Assembly: GCA_016875225.1 (NCBI GenBank)
Contig: VGRW01000008.1
Coordinates: forward strand, 12,960-76,959
From: Deltaproteobacteria bacterium
Lineage (GTDB): Bacteria > Myxococcota_A > UBA9160 > SZUA-336
Reading direction: 5' to 3'
Length of the DNA stretch: 64,000 bases
This document shows, piece after piece, positions 7,612 through 57,990 of this stretch (position 1 is the stretch's first letter; each line of letters begins with the position of its first letter). The notes below the pieces were generated by a model. That model was not told the DNA's origin, made no database searches, and saw only the letters and a program-made list of their open reading frames with translations. Both the position numbers and the translations under genes were made by a program.

Positions 7612-8823
7612 TCAGGCTCGCTCGGGATCGAAGGCGATCCGCATCTCCTTCGCGCCGTTCACGAAGTTCGAACGCAGTCGGCGCGGCGGCGAAACCAGGC
7701 GGGGGTTCCGGAGCCGCTTCAGGATCTCCTGGAAGACCACCACCAGCTCGAGCCGCGCCAGGTTCGCGCCCAGACAGAAGTGCTCGCCGATCCCGAACGC
7801 GAGGTGCGGGTTGTCGACGCGCCCGATGTCGAAGCGGTCCGGCTCGACGAAGACCTCTTCGTCGCGATTCGCCGCCGGGTACCACATCACGACCTTCTGT
7901 CCCTTCGCGATCCTGCGTCCGCGAAGCTCCGTGTCGCGGGTCGCCGTGCGCCGGAAGTAGTGCACCGCCGGATCGAAGCGCACGAACTCCTCGACCGCCT
8001 GCGGCACCAGCGCGGGGTTCGCGACCAGCCGCGCCAGCTGGTCGGGGTGGTCGAGAAGCGCCTTCATTCCATTGGTCGTCACGGTGCGCGTCGTCTCGCT
8101 TCCGGCGACCAGCAGCAACAGGAAGAAGGAGCAGTACTCGAGCTCGGAGAGCTTCTCGCCGTCGATCTCGTGGAAGAGCAGGGCCGTGGTCAGGTTGTCG
8201 GCCGGATCCTTGCGGTACCTCTCGGCGAGCTTCATCGCGAAGCCGAACATCTGAGCCGAAGCGTCGCGCGCGTCCGCCTCGCTGTTCTGGAACTCCGGAT
8301 CGTCGAAGCCGATCAGCTTGTTCGAGAGCTCGAAGATCAGCTTGCGGTCTTCCTGCGGCACGCCCATCAGCTCGCAGATGACCTGCAGCGGGAGCTCCGC
8401 GGCGAGCTCGCCGACGAACTCGCACTCTCCTTTGTGCGCGACGCCGTCGACGATGCGCCTGGCGAGTCCGCGCAGGTAGTCTTCCTGCTTCGCGACCATC
8501 TGCGGCGTGAACCCGCGCTGCACGATGCGCCGGAACTTCACGTGCTGCGGCGGATCCATGTTCAGCATGAGCAGGCGAATGCCCGCGAGCGACGTCTCGT
8601 CGCGGTCCTCGATGTTCGTGCCGCCGAGCCAGCTCGAGTAGAGCAGCGGATCGCGCGAGATGGTCTTCACGTCCTCGTACTTGGTCACGCACCAGAATCC
8701 GGGGCCGTTCCTCTCGGGATGCCAGTGCACGGGGTCGCGGGTGCGCAGCTCTTTGAGCCAGTGATGCGGCGTTCCAGCGACGAAGTGGTCCGGGTTGGCG
8801 AGGTCGATGTCCTCGAGATTCAT
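7612..8823 (-). CDS. cytochrome P450 monooxygenase
   Basis: EXXR (ETTR) and haem-binding loop FGIGEHFCLGANLAR. 404 aa from MNLEDIDLANPDHF. The N-terminal extension of ORF 7612..9411 is rejected. Confidence 0.9.
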   Translation of the reverse strand: MNLEDIDLANPDHFVAGTPHHWLKELRTRDPVHWHPERNGPGFWCVTKYEDVKTISRDPLLYSSWLGGTNIEDRDETSLAGIRLLMLNMDPPQHVKFRRIVQRGFTPQMVAKQEDYLRGLARRIVDGVAHKGECEFVGELAAELPLQVICELMGVPQEDRKLIFELSNKLIGFDDPEFQNSEADARDASAQMFGFAMKLAERYRKDPADNLTTALLFHEIDGEKLSELEYCSFFLLLLVAGSETTRTVTTNGMKALLDHPDQLARLVANPALVPQAVEEFVRFDPAVHYFRRTATRDTELRGRRIAKGQKVVMWYPAANRDEEVFVEPDRFDIGRVDNPHLAFGIGEHFCLGANLARLELVVVFQEILKRLRNPRLVSPPRRLRSNFVNGAKEMRIAFDPERA

Positions 8824-8898: not shown

Positions 8899-9696
8899 AT
8901 GAGCCCAGCCCACGCCCTGGTCGAGAAGGAAGGTCACGTTCTGGTCGTGACCATGAACCGCCCCGAGGCGAAGAACGCGCTGTCGCCGGACATGCTCTGG
9001 CGCATGTACGAGGCCTGGCGCCGGCTCGACGCCGACGCGGATCTGCGCTGCGCGATCCTGACCGGCGCGGGCGGAACGTTCTGCGCGGGCGCGGACCTGA
9101 AGACGATGGGCCGCGAGAAGCCCGACGAGGAGATGCAGAAGCGCATGAAGGAAGTGCCGGACCTGCACTGGCAGGCGCTGCTGCGGCACAACCGGCCGAT
9201 GAAGCCGATCATCGCGGCCGTCGAGGGCTACGCGCTCGCGGGTGGCACGGAGATCCTGCAGGGAACCGACATCCGCGTGGCCGGCGAGTCGGCGGTGTTC
9301 GGGGTGACCGAAGCGCGGCGCGGCCTGTTCCCGCTCGGCGGCTCGACGATCCGCCTGCGCCGGCAGATCCCGTACACGCTCGCGGCGGAGATCCTGCTCA
9401 CAGGGCGCCACGTGAGCGCGAGCGAGGCGAAGGAGTTCGGGCTGATTGGACGCGTGGTGCCGACCGGGTCGGCGCTCGACGAGGCGCGCAGGATCGCCGA
9501 GACGATCTGCGAGAACGGCCCGCTCTCGGTGCAGGCGATCGTGAAGGCGCTGCGCCTGTACGATCAGAGCATGAGCGAGTCGGAGGCGCTGGCGTTGGAG
9601 CTCGAGCTCGGCTGGCCGATCTTCGCCAGCGAGGACGCGAAGGAGGGCCCGCGCGCCTTCGCCGAGAAGCGCAAGCCGGTCTTCAAGGGGCGCTAG
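8899..9696 (+). CDS. enoyl-CoA hydratase/isomerase (crotonase family)
   Basis: …LVVTMNRPEAKNAL…FCAGADLK…AAVEGYALAGGTEIL… 265 aa. In frame with ORF 7780..9696, whose upstream part is shadow. Confidence 0.85.
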   Translation: MSPAHALVEKEGHVLVVTMNRPEAKNALSPDMLWRMYEAWRRLDADADLRCAILTGAGGTFCAGADLKTMGREKPDEEMQKRMKEVPDLHWQALLRHNRPMKPIIAAVEGYALAGGTEILQGTDIRVAGESAVFGVTEARRGLFPLGGSTIRLRRQIPYTLAAEILLTGRHVSASEAKEFGLIGRVVPTGSALDEARRIAETICENGPLSVQAIVKALRLYDQSMSESEALALELELGWPIFASEDAKEGPRAFAEKRKPVFKGR

Positions 9697-9861
9697 AAGC
9701 GGTCTCAGAGACCCCGACCCGAGCCCGGCGCGCGGATTCGGCCCGAGATCGAGGCGCGAGAGCGCAGGCGTATCTCGTCGATACGGCGAGCTCTCGCAAC
9801 GACGAGATCGGGGCGAAGACGCGTGCCCGGCGACGGGAGCGGGTTCTCGAGACCGCTTCTA
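9694..9861. repeat. 13-bp perfect terminal inverted repeats (TAGAAGCGGTCTC … GAGACCGCTTCTA) bracketing the convergent echA/ACAD intergenic region
   Basis: Left repeat 9694..9706 begins with the echA stop codon. Right repeat 9849..9861 ends with the complement of the ACAD stop codon. The arms are 142 bp apart, and the inner ends are themselves short palindromes (GGTCTCaGAGACC, TCTCGAGA). Confidence 0.5.
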
Positions 9862-10974
9862 GTCGGCGAGCGCGTCGCCGAGGCGCTCGAGGTGGCGCGC
9901 GGCGGAGCCGAGCGTGAGCTCGATCTGGCGCGTCCACAGATAGGAGCGGTGCAGCGGGTAGTCGTTGTCCATGCCGATCCCGCCGTGCAGGTGCTGCGCG
10001 GCGTAGGTCGCGTGGTTGCCGCCGTCGGCCGCCCAGATCTTCGCGACCGAGACCGCCGTCGCCGCAGACCGTCCCTGCGAGAGCAGGAACGCGGCCTGCT
10101 GCATCGTGAGCCGCATCGCCTCGAGCTGGATGTAGGCGTCGGCGGCGCGTTGGTGCACGGCCTGGAAGCTGCCGATCGGCCGGTCGAACTGCTTGCGCTC
10201 GCTGGTGTAGCTCGCCGTCATGCGCAGCGCGCGCTCGGCCACGCCGACCTGCAGCGCGCACAGGCCGGTGATCGCGCGCTCGGTGATCCACTCGATCATC
10301 TTCTTGCCGCGCGAGAACGTGCCGAGCACGTCCTGCGCCTTCACCCTGGCTCGCTGCAGGCGCAGCGTCGCGATCGGCTCGCGGTTGGTCGCCGTCTGCA
10401 TCTCGAGCTTCACGCCGGGGCCCTTCGGGTCGACCAGGAACAGACCCACGCGTCCGCCCCCGACGCTGGCCGGCACGAGGATCCGCGCGGCGAGCTTCGC
10501 GGCCGGCACGCAGACCTTCGTGCCCGAGAGCCTGAACGACGCGCCGTCGCGCGTCGCGCGCGTGGAGGGCTTCGTGGGATCGTCCGAGTCGGCCTCCTCG
10601 AACGCGCCGCTGAGCACGACCTGCCCCGCGATCACACCCGGAAGGAACGCGGCTTTCTGTGCGGCGGATCCGAACTCCGCGATCGGCAGCGCCCCGAGCG
10701 CGAGCGTGGCCCAGAACGGGATCGGAGCGACGGCGCGGCCGACCTCCTCCAGCAGGCAGCAGAGCTCGATCACGCCGAGCCCGCTGCCGCCGTAGGCCTC
10801 GGGAAGACACGCGCCGAGAAGATTCGCCTTCGCGAGCTCGCTCCAGAGCTCGGCGTCGTGTCCGCTTCCGCTCCGCTCGATCTCCCCGATGCGCTCGTGG
10901 GAAGCTCGGTCGCCGAGGATCTTCCGCGCGAGCTCGGAGAGGGCCTTCTGGTCGTCGCTGTAGGCGAAGTTCAT
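9859..10974 (-). CDS. acyl-CoA dehydrogenase family protein, probable non-catalytic partner subunit
   Basis: ACAD fold throughout. At the position of the catalytic base (the YEGTxE-like region) it reads GGIGMDNDYP, with no Glu. Immediately downstream of a canonical ACAD. Confidence 0.8.
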   Translation of the reverse strand: MNFAYSDDQKALSELARKILGDRASHERIGEIERSGSGHDAELWSELAKANLLGACLPEAYGGSGLGVIELCCLLEEVGRAVAPIPFWATLALGALPIAEFGSAAQKAAFLPGVIAGQVVLSGAFEEADSDDPTKPSTRATRDGASFRLSGTKVCVPAAKLAARILVPASVGGGRVGLFLVDPKGPGVKLEMQTATNREPIATLRLQRARVKAQDVLGTFSRGKKMIEWITERAITGLCALQVGVAERALRMTASYTSERKQFDRPIGSFQAVHQRAADAYIQLEAMRLTMQQAAFLLSQGRSAATAVSVAKIWAADGGNHATYAAQHLHGGIGMDNDYPLHRSYLWTRQIELTLGSAARHLERLGDALAD

Positions 10975-10981
10975 CTCTACA

Positions 10982-12160
10982 CTATGCCTTGTAGTGCGGC
11001 ATCTGCAGGCCGGCCATCGCGATGATGTCGCGTTGGACTTCGTTGGTACCGCCGCCGAACGTGAGGATCAGCGCCGAGCGGTACATTCGCTCGACGCGCC
11101 CCGCCAGGATCGCACCGGGCGAGCGGGCCTTGAGCTTTCCCGCGGCGCCGAAGATCTCCATCATCGCGCGGTACGCCTCGACGAAGAACTCCGACGCGTA
11201 GACCTTGACCGTCGAGGCCTCGGCCGGGTGCAGGCGCGAGTGGGTCAGCGTCCAGGCCTGCTTCCAGAGCATGAGCTTCAGCGCCTCGCCGCCCGCCTGA
11301 CACTTCGCCAGGTTGCGGCGCACGAAGGGCTGGTCGATCACGCGCCCGCCGTCGGCGAGCCGCGTCTTCCTCGCCCAGGCCCGGACCTCGTCCTGGAGCT
11401 TCTCGAACGGGCCGATCGGAAACAGCGAGACGCGCTCGTGGTTCAGCTGGTTCGTGATCAGGCCCCAGCCGTTGTTCTCGCCGCCGATCAGGTAGCGCGC
11501 CGGCACGCGCACGCCGTCGAAGAAGGTCGCGTTCGTGCGCACGTCGGCCATGGTCCAGATCGGCGTCAGCTTGAATCCAGGCGCGGTGGTCGGAACGATG
11601 AAGATCGAGATCCCGCGGTGCTTCTTCGAGGTCGGGTCGGTGCGCGCGGCGAGCCAGATGTAGTCGGCGAAATCCGCCAGGCTCGTGAAGGTCTTCTGCC
11701 CGTTGATCACCCACTCGTCGCCGTCGCGCACGGCGCTGGTCGAAAGCGACGCAAGGTCGGTTCCGGCCCCAGGCTCGGAGTAGCCGATCGCGAAGTGCAG
11801 GTCGCCGGCGAGGATTCGCGGCAGGATCTCCGCTTTCACTTCGGGACTGCCGTACGCCATCAGCGTCGGTCCGACCGTGCCGAGCGTGAGGAAGGGCAGG
11901 GGGAAGCCCGCGCGCTGCACCTCGTCCGCGAACAGGAACTGCTCGAGCGGCGTGCGGTCCTGGCCGCCGTATTCCTTGGGCCAGCCGATCCCCAGCCAGC
12001 CGTCGCGGCCCATCTTCGCGAGCGCCTTGCGGTATTCGGGGCCGCCGCCCTCTCCGCCCGCCGAGAGCTCCGCCACGAGCTGCTTCGTCATGAGCTTCGC
12101 GAAGTAGCCGCGAAGCTGGTCGCGCAGGAGCGCGAGTTCGGGCGAGAGGTCGATGTACAT
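10982..12160 (-). CDS. acyl-CoA dehydrogenase (catalytic subunit)
   Basis: ACAD N, M and C domains. C-terminal FGGGTNEVQR carries the catalytic Glu. Confidence 0.85.
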   Translation of the reverse strand: MYIDLSPELALLRDQLRGYFAKLMTKQLVAELSAGGEGGGPEYRKALAKMGRDGWLGIGWPKEYGGQDRTPLEQFLFADEVQRAGFPLPFLTLGTVGPTLMAYGSPEVKAEILPRILAGDLHFAIGYSEPGAGTDLASLSTSAVRDGDEWVINGQKTFTSLADFADYIWLAARTDPTSKKHRGISIFIVPTTAPGFKLTPIWTMADVRTNATFFDGVRVPARYLIGGENNGWGLITNQLNHERVSLFPIGPFEKLQDEVRAWARKTRLADGGRVIDQPFVRRNLAKCQAGGEALKLMLWKQAWTLTHSRLHPAEASTVKVYASEFFVEAYRAMMEIFGAAGKLKARSPGAILAGRVERMYRSALILTFGGGTNEVQRDIIAMAGLQMPHYKA

Positions 12161-12202: not shown

Positions 12203-12212
12203 ATCGAGCCGG

Positions 12213-18106: not shown

Positions 18107-18123
18107 GCGCTTGTCGCCCGGAA

Positions 18124-18137: not shown

Positions 18138-18233
18138 ATCCGCCTCGAGAAGGCGCGGGTGTCGCACGGGAAGGGCGGAGTCGAGGAGGGCGCCGGGTCG
18201 GTTCGCAGAGCCGCTGCGAGAGGGAGCTTCTCC

Positions 18234-18878
18234 ATGAGGGTTTCTCTCTCGCTGCGTAGCGCGCGGATCGCATCGGGGATGGTGGCGATCTCCCTGGCTC
18301 TGGCGGCACCCGCGTCTTCCGAATCGAGCGGTCCGCAGCCGGGCTCGACGGGCGTGCCGGCGGGCGCGGGCTTCGAGGCGGAGCCGACCTGCATCTCGTG
18401 CCAGGGCGGCTTTCCGCTGAACTCCGACGGCCGCGACCGGCTCACACTCGCGGGAGTTCCTGCGCGCTACGTCCCCGGCCAGCGCTACCGGCTCGTTCTC
18501 GACCTGCGCCACCCCGACGAGGAGCGCAGACGCTGGGGCTTCCAGCTGACGGCCGTGAGCGCGACGAAGCTCACGGGCGCGGGGTCGTTCGCGGTGACCG
18601 ACGCTGCGAACACGCAGCGGATCGCGGGTACGTTCGGAGATCGCCAGTACATGAGCCACTCCTACTTCGGGACCGGCGTCGGCGACGCGGGCGGACGCAG
18701 CTGGAGCTTCGACTGGATCGCGCCCGCGCGCGAGGTCGGACGCGTCGCGTTCTACGGCGTCGGCAGCGCCGCCGATGCCGACGGCTCGAAGGAAGGCGAT
18801 CGCATCTACGGGCCCGCGCCGAGGCCGCTGGCGACGAGCGATCCGGGCTCGAGCGCGGAGAAGGAGCAACGCCGTTGA
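18234..18878 (+). CDS. secreted hypothetical protein
   Basis: Signal peptide MRVSLSLRSARIASGMVAISLALAAPASS, then EPTCISCQGG… beta-rich domain. Upstream KstR-like box at 18124. The 5' part of ORF 18018..18878 is rejected. Confidence 0.5.
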   Translation: MRVSLSLRSARIASGMVAISLALAAPASSESSGPQPGSTGVPAGAGFEAEPTCISCQGGFPLNSDGRDRLTLAGVPARYVPGQRYRLVLDLRHPDEERRRWGFQLTAVSATKLTGAGSFAVTDAANTQRIAGTFGDRQYMSHSYFGTGVGDAGGRSWSFDWIAPAREVGRVAFYGVGSAADADGSKEGDRIYGPAPRPLATSDPGSSAEKEQRR

Positions 18879-19747
18879 AGTTCTGGCAGTCCGCATCGTT
18901 CAGTGAGCCGGAGCAGCTGATCGAGATCGCGAAGCTCGCGGAGCAGGTCGGCTTCGACGGACTCCTCTTGTCCGATCATCTCTTCTTTCCCGGCAGGCTC
19001 GAATCGAAGTACCCCTACTCGCCCGACGGAGACCCGGGGTTCACGCCCGAGACGCCGTGGCCCGAGCCGTTCGCCGCGATCGCCGCGATGGCGGCGGTCA
19101 CGCGTCGGCTGCGCTTCGCGACGCTGGTCTACATCCTGCCGCTGCGAAATCCGCTCGAAGTCGCGAAGTCGACCGCCACGCTCGACCTGCTCTCCGACGG
19201 GCGCTTCGTCCTCGGCGTCGGCGCGGGCTGGATGAAGGAGGAGTTCGACCAGCTCGGCGTCGACTTCCGCACCCGCGGCGCGCGCTTCGACGAGTCGATC
19301 GACGTGCTGCGCACGCTCTGGTCCGGCGGGATGGTCGAGCACCACGGGCGCTTCTTCGACTTCGCGCGCCTGCAGATGAGCCCGAAGCCGAAGCGGAGCG
19401 TGCCGATCTACGTCGGCGGCGCGAGCGACGCGGCGCTGCGCCGCACCGCGCAGCGCGGCGACGGCTGGCTCGGCAACGGCTCCGACCCCGAAGAGGCTGC
19501 GCGGATCCTCGCCGAGCTCGCGCGGCTGCGCCGCGAGGCCGGCCGCGAGAAGCTGCCGTTCGAGGCCGTCGTGCCGCTCACCACGCCGCCCGACCCCGAC
19601 GTGCTTCGCCGGCTCGAGGACCAGGGTGCGCACGGCACGGTGAGCTACCCGTTCACGTTCGCACTCGGGCCGAATTCGACGCTCGAGCAGAAACGCAGCT
19701 ACCTCGAAGGCTTCGCTGCGAACGTGATCCGCAAGGCGCGGGGCTGA
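18875..19747 (+). CDS. LLM-class flavin/F420-dependent oxidoreductase (luciferase-like)
   Basis: …GFDGLLLSDHLFFP…LGVGAGW… TIM-barrel LLM motifs. TTG start 8 nt after AAGGAG. Confidence 0.75.
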   Translation: MKFWQSASFSEPEQLIEIAKLAEQVGFDGLLLSDHLFFPGRLESKYPYSPDGDPGFTPETPWPEPFAAIAAMAAVTRRLRFATLVYILPLRNPLEVAKSTATLDLLSDGRFVLGVGAGWMKEEFDQLGVDFRTRGARFDESIDVLRTLWSGGMVEHHGRFFDFARLQMSPKPKRSVPIYVGGASDAALRRTAQRGDGWLGNGSDPEEAARILAELARLRREAGREKLPFEAVVPLTTPPDPDVLRRLEDQGAHGTVSYPFTFALGPNSTLEQKRSYLEGFAANVIRKARG

Positions 19748-21420
19748 TGGCGGATCTCGCGGCGATCGAGGCGCGCCTCACCGGCCCGGGCGGCCCGTTC
19801 GAGATCGCGGTCGAAGACGTGCTCGGCGCGCGAATGCCGGTGTTCAAGAACCGGCTGCGCTCGCTGCGCAGTCTGCTCGAGCTCTCGTCGGCGCAGGGAG
19901 AGAAGGAGTATCTCGTCCATCGCGACCGGCGCATCTCGTACGACGAGCACCTGCGTCTGGTCGCGAAGCTGGCGGGCGTGCTGCGCGACCGCTTCGGAGT
20001 CCGGAAGGGGGATCGCGTCGCGATCCTGGCCGAGAACGGCCCCGAGTGGATCCTCTCGTTCTGGGCCGCGCAGGCGCTCGGCGCGGTCGCCGTGGGCCTG
20101 AACGGCTGGTGGGTCGGCGACGAGATCCGCTACGGCGTTCGCGACTGCGATCCGAAGCTCTTGATCGCGGATCGCCGCAGGCTCGAGCGAGTGTCCGCGT
20201 CCGAGCTCCGCGTGCCGGTGCTCGAGATCGAGAGCGACTTCGAGCGGCTCCTCGCGCGAGCCGACGACGCTCCGCTCGCCGAGGTCGAGATCTGCGAGGA
20301 CGATCCCGCGGCGATCCTCTACACGAGCGGAACCACCGGCCGGCCGAAGGGCGCGACGAACACGCAGCGCAACATCCTCGCGCTGCTCGGCCTGCAGTTC
20401 TTCCACGGCGCGCGGATGATGCTGGCCGCGGCCGCCGACGGGCGGGCTCCCACCGGTCCCGCACGGCCGCCCTGCGCGCTCGTGACGACGCCGCTCTTCC
20501 ACGTCTCGGGTCTGTACACCGGCGCGATCGTGATGCTCGCCAGCGGCGCGAAGACGGTCTGGCGCTCGGGACGCTTCGATCCCGTGGACGTGATGCGACT
20601 GATCGAGCGCGAGCGGGTCACGTCCTGGGGGCCGATGGGAACGATGGTCCATCGCGTCGTCCATCATCCGGACGTCGCCAAGTACGATCTCTCGAGCGTC
20701 GCGAGCATCGGCTCCGGCGGCGCGCCGATGAGCCCGGAGCTGCAGCAGAAGATCCGAGCCGTGTTTCCGACCGCGCAGGCGAGCCTCGGGCTCGGCTACG
20801 GCCTGACGGAATGCACGGCGCTGGCGACGCTCGCGTTCGGCGAGGAGCTCGCGCGCCACCCGACCACGGCGGGACGACCCTTGCCGACCGTGCAGCTCGA
20901 GATCCGCGGCGCCGACGGGCGCGCGCTCGCCGAGGGCGAGACCGGCGAGATCTGCGTGCGAAGCCCGCTCGTGATGGCCGGATACTGGCGCAACCCGCAG
21001 GCCAGCGCGGAATCGATCGCGGCGGACCGCTGGCTTCGCACCGGCGACGTCGGGCGGATCGAGCAGGGCCGGCTCTACGTCGATTCGCGCGCGCGCGACC
21101 TGATCCTGCGCGGAGCCGAGAACATCTACCCGGTCGAGATCGAGCAGCGTCTCGAAGCGCACCCCGACGTGCTCGAGGCGGCGGTGGTCGGCGTCGACCA
21201 CGAGGAGCTCGGCCAGGAAGTGAAGGCGATCGTCGTGCCCCGTCCGGGCGCCCGGGTGAGCGCGGCGCAGCTCGCGGCCTGGGTGGCCGAGGCGCTGGCG
21301 GCCTTCAAGGTCCCCGCGCACTGGCAGCTGCGCGCGGAGCCGCTGCCGCGAAACGCGACCGGAAAGGTGCTGAAGAACGTCCTCGTCGGAGCAGCCGGAA
21401 ACGCCTTCGTCGCCGAGTAG
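19747..21420 (+). CDS. acyl-CoA synthetase (AMP-dependent ligase, FadD-like)
   Basis: AMP-binding motif YTSGTTGRPKGA. C-terminal …GKVLK. Start ATG overlaps the upstream TGA. Confidence 0.85.
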   Translation: MADLAAIEARLTGPGGPFEIAVEDVLGARMPVFKNRLRSLRSLLELSSAQGEKEYLVHRDRRISYDEHLRLVAKLAGVLRDRFGVRKGDRVAILAENGPEWILSFWAAQALGAVAVGLNGWWVGDEIRYGVRDCDPKLLIADRRRLERVSASELRVPVLEIESDFERLLARADDAPLAEVEICEDDPAAILYTSGTTGRPKGATNTQRNILALLGLQFFHGARMMLAAAADGRAPTGPARPPCALVTTPLFHVSGLYTGAIVMLASGAKTVWRSGRFDPVDVMRLIERERVTSWGPMGTMVHRVVHHPDVAKYDLSSVASIGSGGAPMSPELQQKIRAVFPTAQASLGLGYGLTECTALATLAFGEELARHPTTAGRPLPTVQLEIRGADGRALAEGETGEICVRSPLVMAGYWRNPQASAESIAADRWLRTGDVGRIEQGRLYVDSRARDLILRGAENIYPVEIEQRLEAHPDVLEAAVVGVDHEELGQEVKAIVVPRPGARVSAAQLAAWVAEALAAFKVPAHWQLRAEPLPRNATGKVLKNVLVGAAGNAFVAE

Positions 21421-45880: not shown

Positions 45881-45896
45881 CGCGCGCGGCGCGAGC

Positions 45897-46358
45897 TCAC
45901 GTCGTCGGAAAGAGCCGGATCTGATCGGGCCCCTGGTAGCGGCCGTCGAGCCAGATGCGCTCGAGGCGGCGCGAGCAGATGCGGAAGCCGTCGCGGGTGC
46001 GCACGAGCTCGTCGTCGTAGCGGCTGCCCTCGGTGACCAGGACCTCTTCGCCCGAATCGATCCGCACCTGAACGTGCGTGCCGGTCAGGTAGGAGCTGCA
46101 GCGCACGACGTCGCCCGCGAGCTCGACAAGCGGGTTGGTGATCACGTGCTGCGTGGACTTGAAGATCGACATCGCGTGCGCGAGCCAGCCGGCGAGCTCG
46201 GGGAAGCGCAGATCGATGCCGCCGGCGACCGCGTAGTGGATCCGCGCGTCGGGCGTGAAGACGCGCTCGAGCGCCTTCCAGTCCTTGGCGTCGATCGCGA
46301 CTGCGTAGCGGTAGAGGAGCTGCGTGATCTCGATCGTGTCTTCCGCGTCGCCGCGCAT
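45897..46358 (-). CDS. NTF2-like (SnoaL/DUF4440-type) protein
   Basis: …ITQLLYRYAVAIDAKDWKALERVFTPDARIHY… is a classic SnoaL-like N-terminus. 153 aa. Confidence 0.6.
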   Translation of the reverse strand: MRGDAEDTIEITQLLYRYAVAIDAKDWKALERVFTPDARIHYAVAGGIDLRFPELAGWLAHAMSIFKSTQHVITNPLVELAGDVVRCSSYLTGTHVQVRIDSGEEVLVTEGSRYDDELVRTRDGFRICSRRLERIWLDGRYQGPDQIRLFPTT

Positions 46359-47908
46359 CAGATCGCGCGCTCGCGGCCGGCCCAGTAGGGGTCGCGGAGC
46401 TTGCGCTTGTAGAGCTTGCCGTTGGGGTCGCGCGGGAGCTCGGCGAGGAAGTCGATCGTCCGGGGCAGCTTGAACTTCGCGAGCTTGTCGGCGCAGAAGG
46501 CGAGGATCTCGGCGGCGAGCTGTGGGCCCGGCTCGACGCCGGCGGCGGGCTCGACCACGGCCTTCACCTCCTCGCCCCAGTCGGCGTTGGGGATCCCGAA
46601 GACCGCGACGTCGGCGATCTTCGGGTGGCCGAGCAGCACGTTCTCGATCTCGGCCGGGTAGATGTTCGCGCCGCCCGAGATGATCATGTCGATCTTGCGG
46701 TCACACAGGAACAGGTAGCCCGCGTCGTTCAGGTAGCCGACGTCGCCGACGGTGAAGTAGTTGCCGATCCGGTTCTTGCGCGTCTTCTCGCTGTCCTTGT
46801 GGTACTCGAAGTCGGCCTGCCCCAGGCGCATGTACACCGTGCCCTGCTGGCCGGTGGGGAGCTCCTGCCCCGCGTCGTCGAAGATCTTGATCTCGGCGCC
46901 GGGCCAGGCGCGGCCGACCGTGCCCGGGTGCACGCGCCACCCCTGTGGCGTGACGAGCGTGCCGCCGCCCTCGGTGGCCGCGTAGTACTCGAAGATCGAG
47001 TCGCCCCACCAGTCCAGCATTCGCCGCTTCACGTCGGGCGGGCAGGGCGCTGCCGCGTGCACCATCGTGCGGGTCGAGCTGCAGTCGTACTTCGCGCGCA
47101 CCTCCGGCGGCAGCGCGAGCATGCGGTGGAACTGCGTCGGCACCATGTGACTCGTGGTGACTCGGTACTTGTCGATCAGGCGCAGGCAGTCCTCCGGCGT
47201 CCACTTGTCCATCAGCACCACCGGGTGACCGAAGTGCATGGACGAGGACGCGAAGACCAGCACCGCCGTGTGGTAGAGCGGCGAGCCGACGATGTGGACG
47301 TTTCCGTCCTCGGGCTTGATCCCGAACATCGACAGGAAGCCGGTGAAGAGCGTCGCGATGATGTCGGGATCGAGCGGCGGCAGCGGCCGGCGCACGCCCT
47401 TGGGCTTTCCGGTCGTGCCCGAGGTGTAGTTCATCACCGCGCCCGCGGCGCGCTCGGCGGGAAGCGTCTCGGGCTGGCCGGCGACGAGCTCGTCGAAGGG
47501 ACGGAAGCTCGGGATCGCGCCGATCGCGAATCGCCCCGAAGCGGGGAAGCGGATCTCGTCGGCCGCGGCGCGGCAGGTGTCGGCGATTCGGTCCGATGCG
47601 ATGAACGCCTTCGCCTCGCTGTCGGCGACGATGTAGGCGATCTCGGCCGGCGCGAGGTGCCAGTTGATCGGCACCAGGTACCAGCCCGACTGCGCGCAGG
47701 CGAGGTTCAGCGCGAAGAACTCCGCGCAGTTCGGAAGCGCCACGGCCACCGCGTCGCCCTGTCGCAGACCCAGCGCGCGAAGGCCGTTCGCGATCCGGTT
47801 CTGCAGCGCGAACAGCTCGCCGCGAGTGTAGGCACGCTCGTCGGGCGCGATCAACGCGAGCCGCGACGGGTCGCGCTGCGCGTAGCTCCAGAAGCCATGG
47901 TCTGCCAC
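46358..47908 (-). CDS. acyl-CoA synthetase (AMP-dependent ligase)
   Basis: YTSGTTGKPKGV, …GEEVKAVV…, C-terminal GKLYKRKL. GTG start preceded by AGGAGG. The upstream R-rich ORF portion is rejected. Confidence 0.85.
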   Translation of the reverse strand: MADHGFWSYAQRDPSRLALIAPDERAYTRGELFALQNRIANGLRALGLRQGDAVAVALPNCAEFFALNLACAQSGWYLVPINWHLAPAEIAYIVADSEAKAFIASDRIADTCRAAADEIRFPASGRFAIGAIPSFRPFDELVAGQPETLPAERAAGAVMNYTSGTTGKPKGVRRPLPPLDPDIIATLFTGFLSMFGIKPEDGNVHIVGSPLYHTAVLVFASSSMHFGHPVVLMDKWTPEDCLRLIDKYRVTTSHMVPTQFHRMLALPPEVRAKYDCSSTRTMVHAAAPCPPDVKRRMLDWWGDSIFEYYAATEGGGTLVTPQGWRVHPGTVGRAWPGAEIKIFDDAGQELPTGQQGTVYMRLGQADFEYHKDSEKTRKNRIGNYFTVGDVGYLNDAGYLFLCDRKIDMIISGGANIYPAEIENVLLGHPKIADVAVFGIPNADWGEEVKAVVEPAAGVEPGPQLAAEILAFCADKLAKFKLPRTIDFLAELPRDPNGKLYKRKLRDPYWAGRERAI

Positions 47909-47922
47909 GGTATTCGCGCCTC

Positions 47923-49080
47923 CTAAGGCTTGTGGTCGGCGACGATGTAGGTGCTGAAGTACTGCGAGCCGCCGCCGTAGGCGTGGCCGAGCGCCTTGCG
48001 CACGCCGTCGACCTGGTGCTCGCCCGCCTGGCCGCGCACCTGCATCGCGGCCTCGGCGAAGCGGATCAGGCCCGAGGCGCCGATCGGGTTCGAGGACAGC
48101 ACGCCCCCCGACATGTTCACCGGCAGATCGCCGTCGATCGCGGTCGCGCCCTCGTAGGTCATCTTCCAGCCCTGGCCTTCCTCGGCGAAGCCCATCGACT
48201 CCATCCACATCGGCTCGAACCACGAGAACGGCACGTAGATCTCCGCGCAGTCGATCTCGGCGCGCGGGTTGGTGATGCGCGCCTTCTTGTACAGATCGGC
48301 GGCGTTCATCCTAGCTGCGAGCGGGTTCACCTGGTCGCGGCCCGCGAACATGGTGGGCTCGGAGCGCATCGCGGTGGCGTGCACCCAGGCGGGCTTTCCC
48401 GGCGCCTTCGCCGCCGCGCTCTCGCTCGCGAAGATCATCGCGCATGCGCCGTCCGACGACGGGCAGGTCTCGAGATAGCGGATCGGATCCCAGAGCATCG
48501 GCGAGTTCATCACCTGCTCGAACGTGACGCCGGGAATCTTCACGTGCGCGTACGGGTTCTTTAGCGCGTTCTGGCGGTCCTTCACCGCGACGCGGATGCC
48601 CGTGTCCTCGGGCGCGCCGGAGCGGCGGATGTAGGCGCGGATCAGCGGCGCGAAGTAGCCGCCCGCGCCCGCCACGACGGCGACGCTGAACGGCGGCGAC
48701 ACGGTGAGCGCCCACATCGCGTTCGACTCCGACTGCTTCTCGAAGCCGACGCAGAGCACGCGCTCGAAGATCCCCGACTCGACCAGCGACGACGCGACGA
48801 TTCCCGTCGAGCCGCCGACGCTGCCGGCGGTGTGCACGCGGATCATCGGCTTTCCCGCGCCGCCGAGCGCCTCGGCGAGGAACAGCTCCGGCATCATCAC
48901 GCCCTCGAACATGTCGGGCGCCTTGCCGATCACGACCGCGTCGACGTCGGCGAAGGAGAGGTCCGCGTCCTCGAGCGCGCGAAGCGCGGCCTCGCGCACC
49001 AGCCCGGGCATCGACACGTCGATGCGCTTGGCGTCGTACTTGGTCTGGCCGATCCCGATCACGGCGCTGCGGCTGGCCAT
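47923..49080 (-). CDS. SCP-x/Ltp2-like thiolase-fold protein lacking the nucleophilic Cys (putative retro-aldolase subunit)
   Basis: Thiolase fold with a C-terminal GG motif region. At the acyl-nucleophile position it reads VHTAGSVGGSTG, with no Cys. Start at MASRSAVIGIGQTKY. Confidence 0.75.
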   Translation of the reverse strand: MASRSAVIGIGQTKYDAKRIDVSMPGLVREAALRALEDADLSFADVDAVVIGKAPDMFEGVMMPELFLAEALGGAGKPMIRVHTAGSVGGSTGIVASSLVESGIFERVLCVGFEKQSESNAMWALTVSPPFSVAVVAGAGGYFAPLIRAYIRRSGAPEDTGIRVAVKDRQNALKNPYAHVKIPGVTFEQVMNSPMLWDPIRYLETCPSSDGACAMIFASESAAAKAPGKPAWVHATAMRSEPTMFAGRDQVNPLAARMNAADLYKKARITNPRAEIDCAEIYVPFSWFEPMWMESMGFAEEGQGWKMTYEGATAIDGDLPVNMSGGVLSSNPIGASGLIRFAEAAMQVRGQAGEHQVDGVRKALGHAYGGGSQYFSTYIVADHKP

Positions 49081-50129
49081 CAGTCGCCCTCCAGCACGCA
49101 GACCAGGTTCTGCTGCAGGCACGGGCCCTGCGTCGCGTGCGCGACCGCGCGATCGCCGCGCCCGGCCGCGATCCGCTGTGCGGCCTCGCCGATCCGGACC
49201 AGCCCCGCGGCCATGTACGGGTGAGAGGCGAGCGCGCCCCCCGACGGGTTGATCGCGACGCCCTCGCCGAGCCCCAGCGCCGCGCGCAGGATCAGCTCCT
49301 GGTGCGAGTACGGCGCGTGCAGCTCGGCGAAGTCGACCCGGCCCGCGTGCACGCCCGCCTTCGCCGCCGCGATCTCCGTCGACGCCGAGCGCGAGAGGTC
49401 GCGAAGCCCGAGCCCCAGCGGCTCGATCCGGTGATCGAAGCCGCGGATCCAGACCGGCCGCGCGCAGAGCTCCCGCGCCTTCTCGCCCGCGACCACGACC
49501 ATCGCCGACGCCCCGTCGGTGATCGGCGGCAGGTCGTGCGCGCGAAGCGGCGAGCAGACGTACGGCTCGGCGAGAAGCTTCTCGATGTCGACGCTGCCGC
49601 TCACCACGGCGTGCGGATTCGCCACCGCGTCACGCCGGCTGCGCGCGACGACGGCCGCCAGGTCGCGTTCGCTCTTGCCAGTGGCTTCGAGAAACGCGCG
49701 CGCCTGGATCGCGGCCAGGCTGTGCGCGTCGGGCCAGAGCGGCAGCATCGTGTACGGGTCGAGCTGCAGCGCCAGGATCTCGGCCAGATCCCCCGACGAC
49801 GACTTGCCGAACGAGTAGACCAGCGCCGAGTCGACGTCGCCGGTCTGGATCTTGATCCACGCCTCGTACAGCGCCCAGGCGCCGTCCATCTCGACGTGCG
49901 ACTCCTTGATCGGCGGCCAGGCGCCGACCGCGTCGAGCGCGCCGACGAAGGCGAAGCTCTGCCCCTGCAGGTAGTCGCTCGAGCCCGAGCAGGTGAAGCC
50001 GATCTCCGCGCGCGGCAGCTTCGCGGCGCGCACGGCCTCCTGCACCACCGGCATCAGGAACTCGACCTCGTTTCGCGTGTCGCGCGGGCTGGTCGACTGC
50101 GCGAACGAGACGATCGCCACCTCGCGCAT
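49080..50129 (-). CDS. thiolase-like protein (SCP-x/Ltp family)
   Basis: MREVAIVSFAQS…FTCSGSSDY… (candidate nucleophile Cys) … C-terminal thiolase motifs. ATGA overlap with the downstream thiolase-like gene. Confidence 0.7.
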   Translation of the reverse strand: MREVAIVSFAQSTSPRDTRNEVEFLMPVVQEAVRAAKLPRAEIGFTCSGSSDYLQGQSFAFVGALDAVGAWPPIKESHVEMDGAWALYEAWIKIQTGDVDSALVYSFGKSSSGDLAEILALQLDPYTMLPLWPDAHSLAAIQARAFLEATGKSERDLAAVVARSRRDAVANPHAVVSGSVDIEKLLAEPYVCSPLRAHDLPPITDGASAMVVVAGEKARELCARPVWIRGFDHRIEPLGLGLRDLSRSASTEIAAAKAGVHAGRVDFAELHAPYSHQELILRAALGLGEGVAINPSGGALASHPYMAAGLVRIGEAAQRIAAGRGDRAVAHATQGPCLQQNLVCVLEGD

Positions 50130-50614
50130 CAGAGGTGTTCCTTGTACGAGTCGTACTCCGCGTCGGGCTCGGCGATCGGCTTGAAGTAGCGGATGCTCGA
50201 CATGGTCGGGCCGAGCTGATCCCTTGGCACCCAGACCGCTTCGACCCGCATGCCCATGCGCACGTCCTCGAGCGCGCACTCCTGCAGCACGTGCAGCATG
50301 GGGATGTCCGCGCCGTCGAGCAGCACCGCCGCGCAGGTGTAGGGCGGGTTGAACGACAGGTTCTCCGACGGCACGCGCACGATGCAGAACGTGGTGACGG
50401 TGCCCTTGTTCGAGACCTGCACCTCTTCCTCGGTGCGCACCGCGCAGCGCGGGCAGGCGCCGCGCGGCGGCACGTACACGCGCCGGCACTCGATGCAGCG
50501 CTGGCCGAGGATGCGGCCCTCCGCGATGCCGCGCAGGAAGCGGCTCTGCGCGCGCCCGGTGACGTAGTCGTAGTCGAGCGCGACGGGGGCCGAGATGCTC
50601 TTCACCAGCTCCAC
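50129..50614 (-). CDS. DUF35 OB-fold / Zn-ribbon protein (thiolase-associated)
   Basis: Zn-ribbon CIECRRVYVPPRGACPRC followed by an OB-fold. GTG start 7 nt after GGAGG. Overlaps the thiolase start. Confidence 0.7.
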   Translation of the reverse strand: MELVKSISAPVALDYDYVTGRAQSRFLRGIAEGRILGQRCIECRRVYVPPRGACPRCAVRTEEEVQVSNKGTVTTFCIVRVPSENLSFNPPYTCAAVLLDGADIPMLHVLQECALEDVRMGMRVEAVWVPRDQLGPTMSSIRYFKPIAEPDAEYDSYKEHL

Positions 50615-50616
50615 GG

Positions 50617-51078
50617 CTAGACCTCCGGCTCGAAGCAGGCGATGTCGCCGATCTCGCCGCGCGTCTCGTCGCGCCAGCGCGCGCGCACGCGCATTCCCGT
50701 GCGCATGCGCGATTCGGCAAGCGCGTCCACCGCGTGCAGGAGCGGCGTGTCCGCGCCGTCGAGCAGGATCAGCGCGAACGCGAACGGCTGCGCGAGCGGC
50801 TGCTTCGCGCGCGGCTTCCCGACCCAGGTCCAGCCTTTGACCGTGCCGCCCGGCCCGACCGGCACGAACTCGTCGCTCGTGGCCTCGCCGGTCTCGGGGT
50901 CGTACTCGGCGGGCGGGACCAGCACGCGCCCCGCGCGGGTGCGCACGCCCTCGATCCGCCGCTCGCGCAGGCCCGCGAAGAAGCGGCCCAGCACCGGACC
51001 GACCGAGCGGCGGTAGGTGTACTCCACGTGGTGCAGCGCCGTGAGCGGCGCGTCGTCGCGCTTGGGGTCGGCGGCCAT
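50617..51078 (-). CDS. DUF35 OB-fold protein (second copy, Zn-ribbon degenerate)
   Basis: …HVEYTYRRSVGPVLGRFFAGL…GVRTRAGRVLVPPAEY… has the DUF35 pattern but lacks the four Cys. Confidence 0.65.
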   Translation of the reverse strand: MAADPKRDDAPLTALHHVEYTYRRSVGPVLGRFFAGLRERRIEGVRTRAGRVLVPPAEYDPETGEATSDEFVPVGPGGTVKGWTWVGKPRAKQPLAQPFAFALILLDGADTPLLHAVDALAESRMRTGMRVRARWRDETRGEIGDIACFEPEV

Positions 51079-51088
51079 CCCTGCGGAT

Positions 51089-51116
51089 TAGAACACGTTC
51101 CAAAGAAACGTGTCCA
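51089..51116. promoter_or_regulatory. KstR-type operator-like palindrome (TAGAACACGTTCCA) plus an adjacent half-degenerate repeat (AGAAACGTGTCCA)
   Basis: Lies in the 65-bp divergent region between the DUF35/thiolase operon and the LLM oxidoreductase gene. The flanking 20 nt (ctgcggatTagaacacgttc) is nearly identical to the P450 5' region. Confidence 0.6.
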
Positions 51117-51167
51117 CGCACGCAGGCCCCGGGTGACGGTAAGATGCGGGACCACAAGGAGTTCCCG

Positions 51168-52175
51168 ATGAAGCTCGGACTGCAGCTCGGCTACTGGCAG
51201 GGACAGCCGCCCACCAACCACGTGGCGCTCGCGCAGGAGGCGGAGCGGCTCGGCTACGACTCGGTCTGGACCGCGGAGGCCTGGGGCTCGGACGCGTTCA
51301 CGCCGCTGGCCTGGATCGGAGCGCACACCAGCAAGATCAAGCTCGCCACCGGCATCGTGCAGATCTCCGCGCGCACGCCGGCGTCGACCGCCATGCACGC
51401 GCTCACGCTCGACCACCTGTCGAAGGGCCGCGTGATCCTGGGGCTCGGCGTCTCGGGCCCGCAGGTGGTCGAGGGCTGGTACGGCCAGCCCTTCGACAAG
51501 CCGCTCGCGCGCACCCGCGAGTACGTCTCGATCATCCGCAAGATCCTGCGCCGCGAGGAGCCGGTCTCGAACGCTGGCCCGCACTACCCGCTGCCCTACA
51601 CCGGCCCGGGCGCGTGGGGGCTGGGCAAGCCGCTGCGCTCGATCGTGCACCCGCTGCGCGCGGACCTGCCGATCTACCTGGGCGCGGAGGGGCCGAAGAA
51701 CGTCGCGCTGGCCGCGGAGATCTGCGACGGCTGGACGCCGCTCTACTTCTCGCCGTTCCGGCCCGAGGTCTACGCGGAGTCGCTGGCGGGCGCGAAGCCC
51801 GGCTTCCAGATCGCGCAGGGCGTGGCGGTGAACATCACGAACGACCTGCAGGCGGGGCTTGCGCCGGTGAAGGCGATGCTCGGCTTCTACATCGGCGGCA
51901 TGGGCGCCAAGCAGCGCAACTTCCACAAGGAGCTGATGGGCCGGATGGGCTTCGAGGCCGAGGCCGACAAGATCCAGGACCTGTTCTTCGCGGGAAAGCG
52001 CGCCGAGGCGATCGCCGCGGTGCCGGACCAGTTCGCGGACGAGGTCTCGCTGGTCGGGCCGATCGAGCGCATTCGCGACCGGCTGCAGGCGTGGAAGAAG
52101 ACGCCGGTCACCACGCTGCTCGTCGCCGCGGGCGATCCCGCGGTGATGCGCACGATGGCCGAGCTGGTGCTGTAG
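51168..52175 (+). CDS. LLM-class F420/flavin-dependent oxidoreductase
   Basis: MKLGLQLGYWQG…LGYDSVWTAEAWGSDAF… Start 6 nt after AAGGAG. KstR-like box in the promoter. Confidence 0.8.
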   Translation: MKLGLQLGYWQGQPPTNHVALAQEAERLGYDSVWTAEAWGSDAFTPLAWIGAHTSKIKLATGIVQISARTPASTAMHALTLDHLSKGRVILGLGVSGPQVVEGWYGQPFDKPLARTREYVSIIRKILRREEPVSNAGPHYPLPYTGPGAWGLGKPLRSIVHPLRADLPIYLGAEGPKNVALAAEICDGWTPLYFSPFRPEVYAESLAGAKPGFQIAQGVAVNITNDLQAGLAPVKAMLGFYIGGMGAKQRNFHKELMGRMGFEAEADKIQDLFFAGKRAEAIAAVPDQFADEVSLVGPIERIRDRLQAWKKTPVTTLLVAAGDPAVMRTMAELVL

Positions 52176-52182
52176 ACGCGGC

Positions 52183-52884
52183 GTGGAGAAGCTCGTCTAC
52201 CTGCTCTGGAAGCGCGGGGCCGACGGCATCGAGCCGTTTCGCGAGCGGCTGCTCGAGCGGGCGGCCCCACGTCTTCTGGCCGACGGCGCGCTCTCGCTGG
52301 TGGCAAACGTCGCGGACCTGCACGCGCAGATCCCGCCACGCCACCCGCTGGTCGTGGGCGACGGCCGCGAGGTCTCGGCCTGCGTCTCCGTCTGGCTCGA
52401 GTCCCAGGACGCGCGCCCGGCGCTCGAGGCGACACTCGCAGGTGTCGCATCCAGGGTGGACGGCTATCTGGTGACGGAGTCGGTGCCGCTGCGCTGCCCG
52501 GACCGGACCTGGCCCGACGGCGTGCGCAGCCCCGGCGTCACGCTCTGGACCGCGTTTCCCAAGCCCGAACGGCTGGCCGACGAGGCGTTCTTCGCGCACT
52601 GGTACGGCTCGCACACGCCGCTCTCGTTCGAGATCCACCCGCTCTGGCAGTACGTGCGCAACGCGGTCGCGCGGCCGCTCACGCCCGGCGCGAAGCCGTT
52701 TCGCGCCATCGTCGAGGAGCGCTTCCGCTCGCTCGAAGAGATCCTCGACTTCAAACGCTTCTTCGGGGGCGACCTGGCGAACATCCGGCGCGTGACCGAC
52801 GACCTCGCGGCCTTCACCGAGATGGCGACCATGAACACCACGCCGATGAGCGAGTTCATCGTGAGGAGCGAGCCGTGGCTCTAG
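52183..52884 (+). CDS. hypothetical protein (possible EthD-like alpha+beta barrel)
   Basis: GTG start. No diagnostic motif. Co-directional with the neighbouring catabolic genes. Confidence 0.45.
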   Translation: MEKLVYLLWKRGADGIEPFRERLLERAAPRLLADGALSLVANVADLHAQIPPRHPLVVGDGREVSACVSVWLESQDARPALEATLAGVASRVDGYLVTESVPLRCPDRTWPDGVRSPGVTLWTAFPKPERLADEAFFAHWYGSHTPLSFEIHPLWQYVRNAVARPLTPGAKPFRAIVEERFRSLEEILDFKRFFGGDLANIRRVTDDLAAFTEMATMNTTPMSEFIVRSEPWL

Positions 52885-57900: not shown

Positions 57901-57990
57901 TCGATCCTGCGTCCGGGCGTGCCGCGAGCGCGGCGCGCGCCGGAGGCGAAATTGGAATCGGCCGCACCGGCCGAGGAGGAGGCGGCATGA
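54982..57990 (+). CDS. MMPL/RND-superfamily transporter
   Basis: 1002 aa. Two 6-TM bundles with large periplasmic loops, and sterol-sensing-domain-like TM regions (…[22 protein letters not shown]…, …[15 protein letters not shown]…). Confidence 0.85.

Follow-up and report, generated by a model that had tools for sequence, protein, structure and literature searches.

A stretch of 64,000 nucleotides from an uncultured member of the Myxococcota (Deltaproteobacteria bacterium, assembly GCA_016875225.1, contig VGRW01000008.1, positions 12,960 to 76,959), referred to here as the window, contains four adjacent minus-strand genes at 47923–51078 coding for two DUF35 proteins (DUF35-A and DUF35-B) and two thiolase-fold proteins, a small one (L4) and a large one (L3). 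These genes are probably the split-gene form of the conserved Rv3521–ltp4–ltp3 module, with a role in retro-aldol cleavage of the sterol side chain. The module is thus a known system in a new host, and not a new kind of system. In M. tuberculosis the corresponding region comprises Rv3520c, encoding an F420-dependent oxidoreductase, the conserved hypothetical gene Rv3521, ltp4 (Rv3522) and ltp3 (Rv3523).

The L4 protein gave a score of 522.2 bits with the NCBIfam model PRK07937 ("lipid-transfer protein", cut-off 419), and L3 a score of 668.4 bits with PRK08313 (cut-off 514). Both thiolase-fold proteins exceed curated cut-offs, which puts the observation far beyond chance. On the basis of synteny and of the gene numbering used in the literature, PRK07937 is assigned to the ltp4 and PRK08313 to the ltp3 position of Mycobacteriales. 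In later papers ltp3 and ltp4 of R. rhodochrous (Wilbrink et al. 2012, pmid 23059973) are cited as essential for degradation of C24-branched sterol side chains, and Ltp3–Ltp4 is described as a heteromeric aldol-lyase releasing propionyl- or acetyl-CoA. In a Mycobacterium strain, phytosterol raised the expression of both genes about 97-fold.

Gene organization and conservation of the module

The window has a G+C content of about 71%, and raw lists of its open reading frames (ORFs) are crowded with spurious frames. Third-position GC showed a single coding frame, on the minus strand, along 45.9–51.1 kb, with values of 0.94–0.97 marking four genes within 47923–51078, and inspection of start codons gave six co-directional genes in all, from 51078 to 45897. 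In the order of transcription, these are DUF35-A (51078..50617; 153 amino acids (aa), OB-fold), DUF35-B (50614..50129; 161 aa, GTG start, zinc ribbon and OB-fold), the small thiolase-fold subunit L4 in the ltp4 position (50129..49080; 349 aa), the large thiolase-fold subunit L3 in the ltp3 position (49080..47923; 385 aa), an acyl-CoA synthetase (47908..46358; 516 aa, Pfam AMP-binding and AMP-binding_C) and, as the last operon gene, a SnoaL_4/NTF2-like protein (46358..45897; 153 aa, Pfam SnoaL_4 91.9 bits), all on the minus strand. A preliminary description of this DNA had placed the four genes at exactly these limits; its length of 386 for the large protein is the number of codons including the stop, the protein itself having 385 aa.

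ATGA stop/start overlaps of 1 nt were found at 50129 (DUF35-B/L4) and at 49080 (L4/L3), the latter being the overlap of the two thiolase genes already noticed in the preliminary description, and DUF35-A is separated from DUF35-B by a gap of 2 nt, with a GGAGG sequence within the end of DUF35-A. The four genes are translationally coupled. The same six gene calls, with core lengths of 153, 161, 349 and 385 aa, were found in an independent public assembly containing a contig with identical proteins. The SnoaL_4 gene is accessory and lies outside the conserved core, since it was seen only in the closest relatives (loci L001–L003). A consensus scan of 45700–51300 for sigma-70 promoters and terminators gave nothing above chance.

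Loci of Tsukamurella, Nocardia and Rhodococcus served as stand-ins for a comparison with M. tuberculosis. A replicon of Tsukamurella tyrosinosolvens (Mycobacteriales) carries genes for an AMP-ligase, a 309-aa OB-fold protein and two "thiolase domain" proteins of 359 and 390 aa, within an annotated steroid region that includes a P450, a "steroid 3-ketoacyl-CoA thiolase", an enoyl-CoA hydratase, two CoA-transferase subunits and an F420 luciferase-like (LLM) protein. Identity with the Tsukamurella counterparts was 65% for L3 and 54% for L4, while DUF35-A was 57% identical to the N-terminal half and DUF35-B 49% identical to the C-terminal half of the OB-fold protein. As judged from these alignments, DUF35-A and DUF35-B are the counterparts of the N- and C-terminal halves, respectively, of the Rv3521-type tandem-DUF35 protein. 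Similarity extended to three further products of the window: its Rv3520c-type LLM protein (57%), an enoyl-CoA hydratase encoded at 8899..9696 (60.5%) and a P450 encoded at 7612..8823 (43%). An orthologous pair in Rhodococcus (L3 67%, L4 52% identical) adjoins LLM, P450 and thiolase-family genes.

The gene divergent from the operon (51144..52175, plus strand, 343 aa) matched the NCBIfam model TIGR03559 "F420_Rv3520c" with 456 bits (cut-off 335). This Rv3520c-family LLM gene faces the operon with a KstR-type box between them, as at Rv3520c/Rv3521 of M. tuberculosis. The window module thus shares with Rv3521/Ltp4/Ltp3 the NCBIfam families, the gene order from tandem DUF35 through the small to the large thiolase-like gene, and co-occurrence with EchA19, FadD19-type, ChsE4/5-type and P450 genes. 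It differs in its Myxococcota host, in the division of the DUF35 protein into two genes, and in the co-transcription of an orthologous acyl-CoA synthetase and a SnoaL-like gene. Names given to the orthogroup in the databases were all generic ("acetyl-CoA acetyltransferase", "thiolase domain-containing protein"), none being tied to "Ltp3".

A genome scan with one genome per species yielded more than 598 loci. In the best 80 of these, which were examined, L3 was 67–81% identical to the window protein. They belong to Myxococcota/"Deltaproteobacteria", many Actinomycetes (Actinomadura, Nonomuraea, Nocardioides, Streptomyces), Gammaproteobacteria, and metagenome-assembled genomes (MAGs) labelled Spirochaetes, Chloroflexi, Binatia and others, although the taxonomic labels of MAGs may be unreliable; no Mycobacterium was among these best 80. 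The best 120 of 8000 scored metagenome homologues of L3 were 78–95% identical, and the few that are named are mostly Myxococcota, which by itself makes an uncultured myxobacterial origin of the window very probable.

The order DUF35-A, DUF35-B, L4, L3 was kept in all of the 82 related loci in which the four parts could be scored, from several phyla. In 42 of these loci, mostly from Actinomycetes, DUF35-A and DUF35-B are fused into a single ORF, and in the other 40 they are two ORFs, so that the four separate genes emphasized in the preliminary description are present here, the fused layout being also common. Each fused protein contains two OB domains but a single zf-ChsH2 ribbon, located in the C-terminal half. 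Orthologues of the acyl-CoA synthetase, with 56–75% identity in most loci, adjoin the module on its upstream or downstream side in about 50 of 86 loci, and in 12 other loci the Rv3520c-type LLM orthologue is transcribed away from the DUF35 gene. FadA5, Ltp2, ChsH1/ChsH2 and KstR-like TetR genes are also neighbours of the module in other genomes. L3, L4, Ltp2-like and FadA5-like proteins fell into four groups, with 56–71% identity within and 26–31% between groups.

Two further features of related loci were observed. In L005, whose L3 is 82% identical to that of the window, a Carboxyl_trans gene (6976–8388) lies three genes downstream of the module, and such a carboxyltransferase would fit the carboxylation proposed to precede aldol cleavage. 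In addition, three Actinomadura-type loci contain an extra thiolase-fold paralogue a few kb from the module (L021 14686–15843, L031 15310–16467, L032 15632–16789) which keeps the nucleophile Cys (YAACASG) and has YDLS at the HDCF position.

Active-site positions of L3 and L4 and the DUF35 domains

SCP2 thiolases contain a nucleophilic Cys, an HDCF motif and a GHP motif. In the Ltp2 aldolase of T. curvata (TcLtp2), Tyr294 of the YDHF motif is the catalytic base and Tyr344 the acid, while in the Sal aldolase of C. testosteroni (CtSal), where Gly occupies the nucleophile position, the base is Tyr302 and the acid Cys304 of YDCY, and Gln352 stands where TcLtp2 has Tyr344 (PMC12329534, 2025). L3 matched Pfam Thiolase_C_1 with 110 bits, and its best match among solved structures was the Sulfolobus thiolase-like protein 4YZO_A (157 bits, E = 7.5e-45), followed by archaeal and SCP2 thiolases and BbsB. 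The string VHTAGSVGGSTG, quoted in the preliminary description, corresponds to L3 residues 82–93. HMMER alignments of L3 to 6HSJ, 4BI9 and 7YVY, and also to SCP2-type thiolases and PFC_04095, placed Gly86 at the nucleophile position; the absence of Cys reported earlier was thus borne out, with the residue concerned being Gly86 and not Ala85. In the alignments to 6HSJ, 4BI9 and 7YVY, Y282-V-P-F fell on HDCF and Asn331 on the His of GHP. L3 therefore has replacements for the nucleophilic Cys, for both catalytic residues of HDCF (His and Cys) and for the GHP His, and lacks the catalytic set of a thiolase.

Direct alignment placed Tyr282 of L3 on the Tyr of the YD(H/A)F motif of Ltp2-like proteins. 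L3 thus retains the Tyr that acts as catalytic base in Ltp2 and Sal, which supports retro-aldol chemistry, and it is the putative catalytic aldolase subunit. The residues H-T-A-G86-S-V-G-G, E280, Y282-V-P-F-S-W and N331 were invariant in 80 of 80 orthologues, and in L3 paralogues of about 40% identity Gly86 and Asn331 were likewise invariant and Tyr282 nearly so.

The AlphaFold2 (AF2) model of L3 was poor, with a predicted local distance difference test score (pLDDT) of 66.5 and low-confidence parts that include the active-site loops 283–286 and 311–335; judging from the model, these loops may be ordered only within a complex. The alignments used for L3 and L4 were of similar depth, yet the L4 model reached a pLDDT of 86. 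Its best fold match in the PDB was 6ET9_C, an archaeal DUF35-bound thiolase (TM 0.89). Because Foldseek searches with both models returned thiolases and aldolases intermixed, the fold cannot separate the two functions.

All Pfam and NCBIfam families matched by L4 are thiolase or thiolase-like, the Pfam scores being weak (Thiolase_C_1, 30 bits). At the nucleophile position L4 has Glu80, within an invariant loop S77-H-V-E80-M-D82 (window 49890–49907); the orthologues have Glu in 71 and Asp in 1 of 72. The check for a catalytic Cys by alignment, put forward in the preliminary description as capable of refuting it, thus found none in either subunit. His271 stands at the HDCF position, in the motif H-A-P-Y, and is kept in 66 of 72 orthologues, while at the GHP position the window protein differs from most orthologues in having His303, the residue being Asn in 63 of 72. 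Such conservation argues against L4 being a dead partner; no description of this motif was found in the literature examined. Cys47 of L4 (in "FTCSG") was considered as a nucleophile and rejected, since it aligns to the L3 strand "AVVIG", outside the nucleophile loop.

DUF35-B gave scores above the cut-offs for both Pfam zf-ChsH2 (41.9 bits) and OB_ChsH2_C (54.9 bits), and in a PDB sequence search matched the DUF35 chains 6ESQ_E, 3IRB, 6OK1_B and 9MYR_B. Its ribbon cysteines are C40, C43, C54 and C57. The first three are kept in about 70 of 78 orthologues, while the column of Cys57, the fourth ligand, shows Cys (39 orthologues), Asp (28) or His (4), a variability that recalls the C3H1 finger reported for the DUF35 domain of Shy. 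DUF35-A matched OB_ChsH2_C (37.5 bits, cut-off 27.1) and left zf-ChsH2 unmatched. Its sole Cys is at residue 148, and the zinc ribbon is replaced by a Cys-free hairpin, in agreement with the earlier view that one DUF35 protein has an intact C4 ribbon and the other is degenerate. None of 71 DUF35-A orthologues had ribbon Cys ligands; a conserved Cys-free stretch with the consensus GrvlvPP.EyDp.tg is found in place of the ribbon. No hot-dog/MaoC domain was detected by Pfam in either protein.

KstR-type operators and other genes of the window

The KstR box palindrome TAGAACNNGTTCTA was matched five times in the window with at most two mismatches, against 0.21 matches expected. The longer window consensus TGGAACGTGTTCCAATC likewise gave five distinct sites, against 0.02 expected, and all five are intergenic; the motif can also be written TGGAACGTGTTCCA. 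The box at 51086–51102, TGGAACGTGTTCTAATC, has one mismatch to the window consensus and lies in the 65-bp divergent promoter region, beginning 24 nt upstream of the DUF35-A ATG and facing the Rv3520c-type LLM gene. A box with no mismatches was found at the same position, –24 of the DUF35 gene, in six related loci. In related loci as a whole the motif occurred 146 times in 1.5 Mb, nearly always between genes, and it was also present in the non-actinobacterial loci L009, L018 and L035. The KstR site in the Rv3520c/Rv3521 intergenic region of M. tuberculosis is positive in the electrophoretic mobility shift assay (EMSA).

Two of the other boxes (8829–8845 and 8874–8893) are located between the divergent genes for the P450 (minus strand) and an EchA19-like hydratase (plus strand; 376 bits with the EchA19 model, cut-off 400, and 406 bits with PRK07799, cut-off 316). 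The box at 12189–12205 precedes a heteromeric-type, ChsE4/5-like acyl-CoA dehydrogenase pair (9859..12160, minus strand). The box at 18121–18140, a perfect match to the consensus, lies about 740 nt before the plus-strand genes for an F420 LLM protein (18875..19747) and a CasG/FadD19-like steroid-CoA ligase (19747..21420). The ligase reached 731 bits with the steroid-24-oyl-CoA synthetase model (cut-off 750). Between the box and these genes lies a 174-aa ORF (18354..18878, plus strand) with weak support. Orthologues of the P450, the hydratase and the acyl-CoA dehydrogenase pair adjoin the module in other genomes, and those of the ligase do so in L020 and L035. Unlike in the Mycobacterium system, the genes of the window regulon are scattered among housekeeping genes and form no single steroid island.

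No kstR gene was found among the window genes scanned against Pfam and NCBIfam. In a close relative (L002), a TetR gene stands between the LLM and DUF35-A genes, and the representative of its cluster, from L010, is weakly KstR-like (107 bits, cut-off 280). A literature search found no paper on KstR in Myxococcota, those in which the two terms occur together being unrelated. The five boxes suggest, as a sequence pattern, a KstR-like regulon in a Myxococcota genome.

Several other genes of the window were recorded. It has three luciferase-like genes (18875–19747, 26324–27226 and 51144–52175), which imply the use of cofactor F420 in this lineage; two match F420-dependent NCBIfam families, of the Rv2161c and Rv3520c types, and 26324–27226 matches only Pfam Bac_luciferase. 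A LipL-like esterase/beta-lactamase gene (21469–22626) lies directly downstream of the CasG/FadD19-like ligase gene on the same strand, a carboxylesterase is encoded at 32071–33618 and a LipP1-family hormone-sensitive lipase at 59684–60622 (423 bits, cut-off 350); for these three lipases/esterases, all near the regulon, steryl or other lipid esters are conceivable substrates. The region that follows the Rv3520c-type LLM gene, 52183–57990, codes for a 233-aa protein, a DUF3047 protein, a GNAT protein and a 1002-aa MMPL/RND transporter; the DUF3047 and MMPL genes are kept in L002 and may serve substrate uptake or export. The 233-aa protein (52183..52884), with a sub-threshold EthD match only, was considered as the Rv3519 counterpart and rejected, since the Tsukamurella gene in the same place does not resemble it. 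On the other side of the operon, 41780–44786 contains a cluster apparently unrelated to the module, in which a gene for a cytochrome b561-type protein (207 aa) stands between two genes for multihaem cytochromes c (321 and 469 aa); next comes a gene for an AI-2E family transporter.

Proposed reaction, alternatives and implications

In the reaction proposed here, L3 and L4 would form a thiolase-fold heterodimer, an arrangement favoured by their translational coupling, their invariant adjacency, and the genetics and naming in the literature. One DUF35 domain would clamp each thiolase-fold subunit, DUF35-B with its zinc ribbon and DUF35-A with its zinc-free hairpin, as in Ltp2, Sal, BbsAB and the archaeal complexes. 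Tyr282 of L3 would deprotonate the beta-hydroxyl of a branched, tertiary 3-hydroxyacyl-CoA, and the C-alpha/C-beta bond would be broken by retro-aldol cleavage to give a short acyl-CoA enolate, then protonated by some acid, and a carbonyl product that would carry the carboxyl group introduced earlier. In the pathway published for sterols with a C24 branch, the substrate cleaved is the hydrated, carboxylated steroid-26-oyl-CoA; propionyl-CoA is released after carboxylation of C28 and hydration, and, according to a pathway review, the carboxylate product must be re-activated to its CoA thioester. By the logic of that pathway, the co-transcribed acyl-CoA synthetase would re-thioesterify the carboxylate, and its adjacency to the module in many related loci fits such a step. 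A KstR-type repressor acting at the 51086–51102 operator would govern the operon, in common with the P450, EchA19-like, acyl-CoA dehydrogenase and ligase genes. The present analysis demonstrates the gene structure, the family membership, the synteny, the active-site residues and the operator sites; from these and the literature we infer the heteromeric architecture, the retro-aldol activity and, for the Myxococcota host, a substrate that is a sterol or sterol-like.

Several points weigh against this reading. The link to Ltp3 and Ltp4 of H37Rv and R. rhodochrous is an indirect one, drawn from synteny, from NCBIfam models and from orthologues in Tsukamurella and Rhodococcus. No in-vitro assay or structure of Ltp3, Ltp4 or Rv3521 was found in the literature that could be reached, so that the aldolase label is drawn from genetics and analogy, and M. 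neoaurum mutants lacking ltp3 or ltp4 still converted phytosterols to 4-HBC. The mechanism is incomplete, because both general acids of the known aldolases are absent from L3, Tyr344 of Ltp2 being replaced by Asn331 and Cys304 of Sal by Pro284. From the conservation of its sequence, L4 may be a catalytic rather than a passive partner. Finally, tblastn found no homologues of FadA5, Ltp2 or IpdAB in the 64-kb window, and no ring-degradation genes were seen among its genes scanned against Pfam and NCBIfam; with kstR also not found there, the sterol substrate is not established in this organism.

These same gaps leave some room for the same module and chemistry acting on a non-sterol substrate, such as a branched or isoprenoid acyl-CoA derived from hopanoid, carotenoid or terpenoid tails or from the organism's own lipids, and we regard this as improbable but worth keeping in view. 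A family so widespread and unusually conserved across many phyla could have a general role, and the local neighbours, lipases/esterases, the MMPL transporter and the GNAT protein, would suit such a substrate. Against it stand the KstR-type operator common to the P450, EchA19-like, ChsE4/5-like and CasG/FadD19-like genes, and the related loci of Myxococcota and Spirochaete MAGs, in which the module lies beside orthologues of FadA5, Ltp2 and ChsH1/ChsH2.

The preliminary description had proposed an equivalent of Ltp2 divided among four genes, which would cleave the C17–C20 bond of 17-hydroxy-3-oxo-4-pregnene-20-carboxyl-CoA to androstenedione and propionyl-CoA. It named the right kind of system, a DUF35-partnered, Cys-less thiolase-fold retro-aldolase in which L3 keeps the base Tyr of Ltp2 and Sal. 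The SCP2-type thiolase fold, the lost nucleophilic Cys, the Tyr at the first position of HDCF (that of YDHF) and the DUF35 partner are shared with the Ltp2–ChsH2(DUF35) complex of T. curvata (6OK1), a structure that was also among the Foldseek matches. The assignment to Ltp2 itself, however, is very unlikely. L3 reached 141.9 bits with the Ltp2-type model PRK07855, far below its cut-off of 469 and below its own score with PRK08313, and 6OK1_A came eighth among its structure matches, with 73 bits against 157 for 4YZO_A. L3, L4 and Ltp2-like proteins are mutually 26–30% identical, L3 belonging to a different orthogroup (about 27% identity to Ltp2) with YVPF for YDHF, so that the His of that motif is missing, as is the second Tyr, Tyr344. 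In addition, Ltp2 is a homodimer, whereas the present module has two different thiolase-fold subunits, and its DUF35 partners are free-standing or in tandem, in contrast to the DUF35 domain fused to the ChsH2 (MaoC) hydratase.

A separate Ltp2 orthologue was moreover found together with ChsH1 and DUF35-containing ChsH2 genes in related genomes, as exemplified by the Myxococcota MAG locus L007. One co-directional cluster there begins with a ChsH2-type gene (hot-dog, zf-ChsH2 and OB domains) enclosed by two acyl-CoA dehydrogenase genes. Next come, in order, genes for a ChsH1-type MaoC protein, for an Ltp2-like protein of PRK07855 and for a FadA5-type "steroid 3-ketoacyl-CoA thiolase" (686 bits with the family model, cut-off 515), then those for a short-chain dehydrogenase/reductase (SDR) and an LLM protein, and lastly a fused double DUF35 gene, L4, L3 and the acyl-CoA synthetase orthologue. 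The module is accompanied by Ltp2-like genes also in L011, L015, L016, L018, L065 and L082; the separate PRK07855 protein of related loci scores 705 bits, and its motif is YDHF, as published, in two actinomycete loci and YDAF in the others. Since Ltp2 and the L4/L3 pair occur together at the same loci, they are distinct components.

The Sal–Shy(DUF35) aldolase of C. testosteroni (9MYR), which acts on the bile-acid C5 side chain, resembles the module in the Gly at the nucleophile position, the Tyr at the catalytic position, an amide at the GHP position (Gln352 in Sal, Asn331 in L3) and variable DUF35 zinc ligands (C3H1 in Shy; C4, C3D and C3H among DUF35-B orthologues). It differs in that Cys304 of YDCY corresponds to Pro284 of L3, that Sal is a homodimer, and that its DUF35 domain is fused N-terminally to a MaoC hydratase. 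Among the best sequence or fold matches were the archaeal thiolase/HMG-CoA synthase/DUF35 complex (6ESQ, 6ET9), the benzoylsuccinyl-CoA thiolase BbsAB (7PXP), PhlABC (5M3K) and ST0096 (4YZO), which follow the same principle of a thiolase-fold subunit held by a DUF35 scaffold; a pairing of two diverged Cys-less subunits with two diverged DUF35 domains is seen in none of them. That the module is a true thiolase or acyltransferase of this kind is hardly credible: database names ("acetyl-CoA C-acetyltransferase") and best matches that include true thiolases and PhlC would favour it, but those thiolases and the acyltransferase use a nucleophilic Cys, and with Gly86 in L3 and Glu80 in L4 the complex would be incapable of thiolysis, the HDCF-position Cys being also absent, the GHP His replaced by Asn in L3, and these substitutions invariant across orthologues.

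The Ltp3/Ltp4-type reading thus being preferred, a bolder combination may be considered, in which DUF35-A, DUF35-B, L4 and L3 make up an obligate asymmetric hetero-tetramer with a new active site, serving a KstR-controlled sterol side-chain pathway in uncultured Myxococcota. This combination is tentative and on balance rather doubtful. In it, the general acid missing from L3 could come from the S-H-V-E-M-D loop of L4 (Glu80); alternatively, L4 could catalyse a second, different step. If either is true, the L4-completed or second-step site would be a new active-site solution in the thiolase superfamily. Whichever reading holds, the conserved signature offers targets for mutagenesis in L3 G86, Y282-V-P-F and N331 and in the L4 S-H-V-E-M-D loop, together with the zinc-bearing and the zinc-free DUF35 domains.

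For annotation, the plausible Ltp2 mis-assignment is corrected to the Ltp3/Ltp4 orthogroup, and generic database names are seen to hide a chemically different enzyme, one that is used in industrial phytosterol conversion and present in M. tuberculosis. To our knowledge, steroid side-chain catabolism has been described so far in Actinobacteria and Proteobacteria only. The KstR-type boxes hint at sterol side-chain catabolism, and at its regulator, beyond the classical steroid degraders. If the combined reading holds, the Myxococcota pathway, together with the module in MAGs of Spirochaetes, Binatia and Chloroflexi, would extend steroid side-chain catabolism to new phyla.

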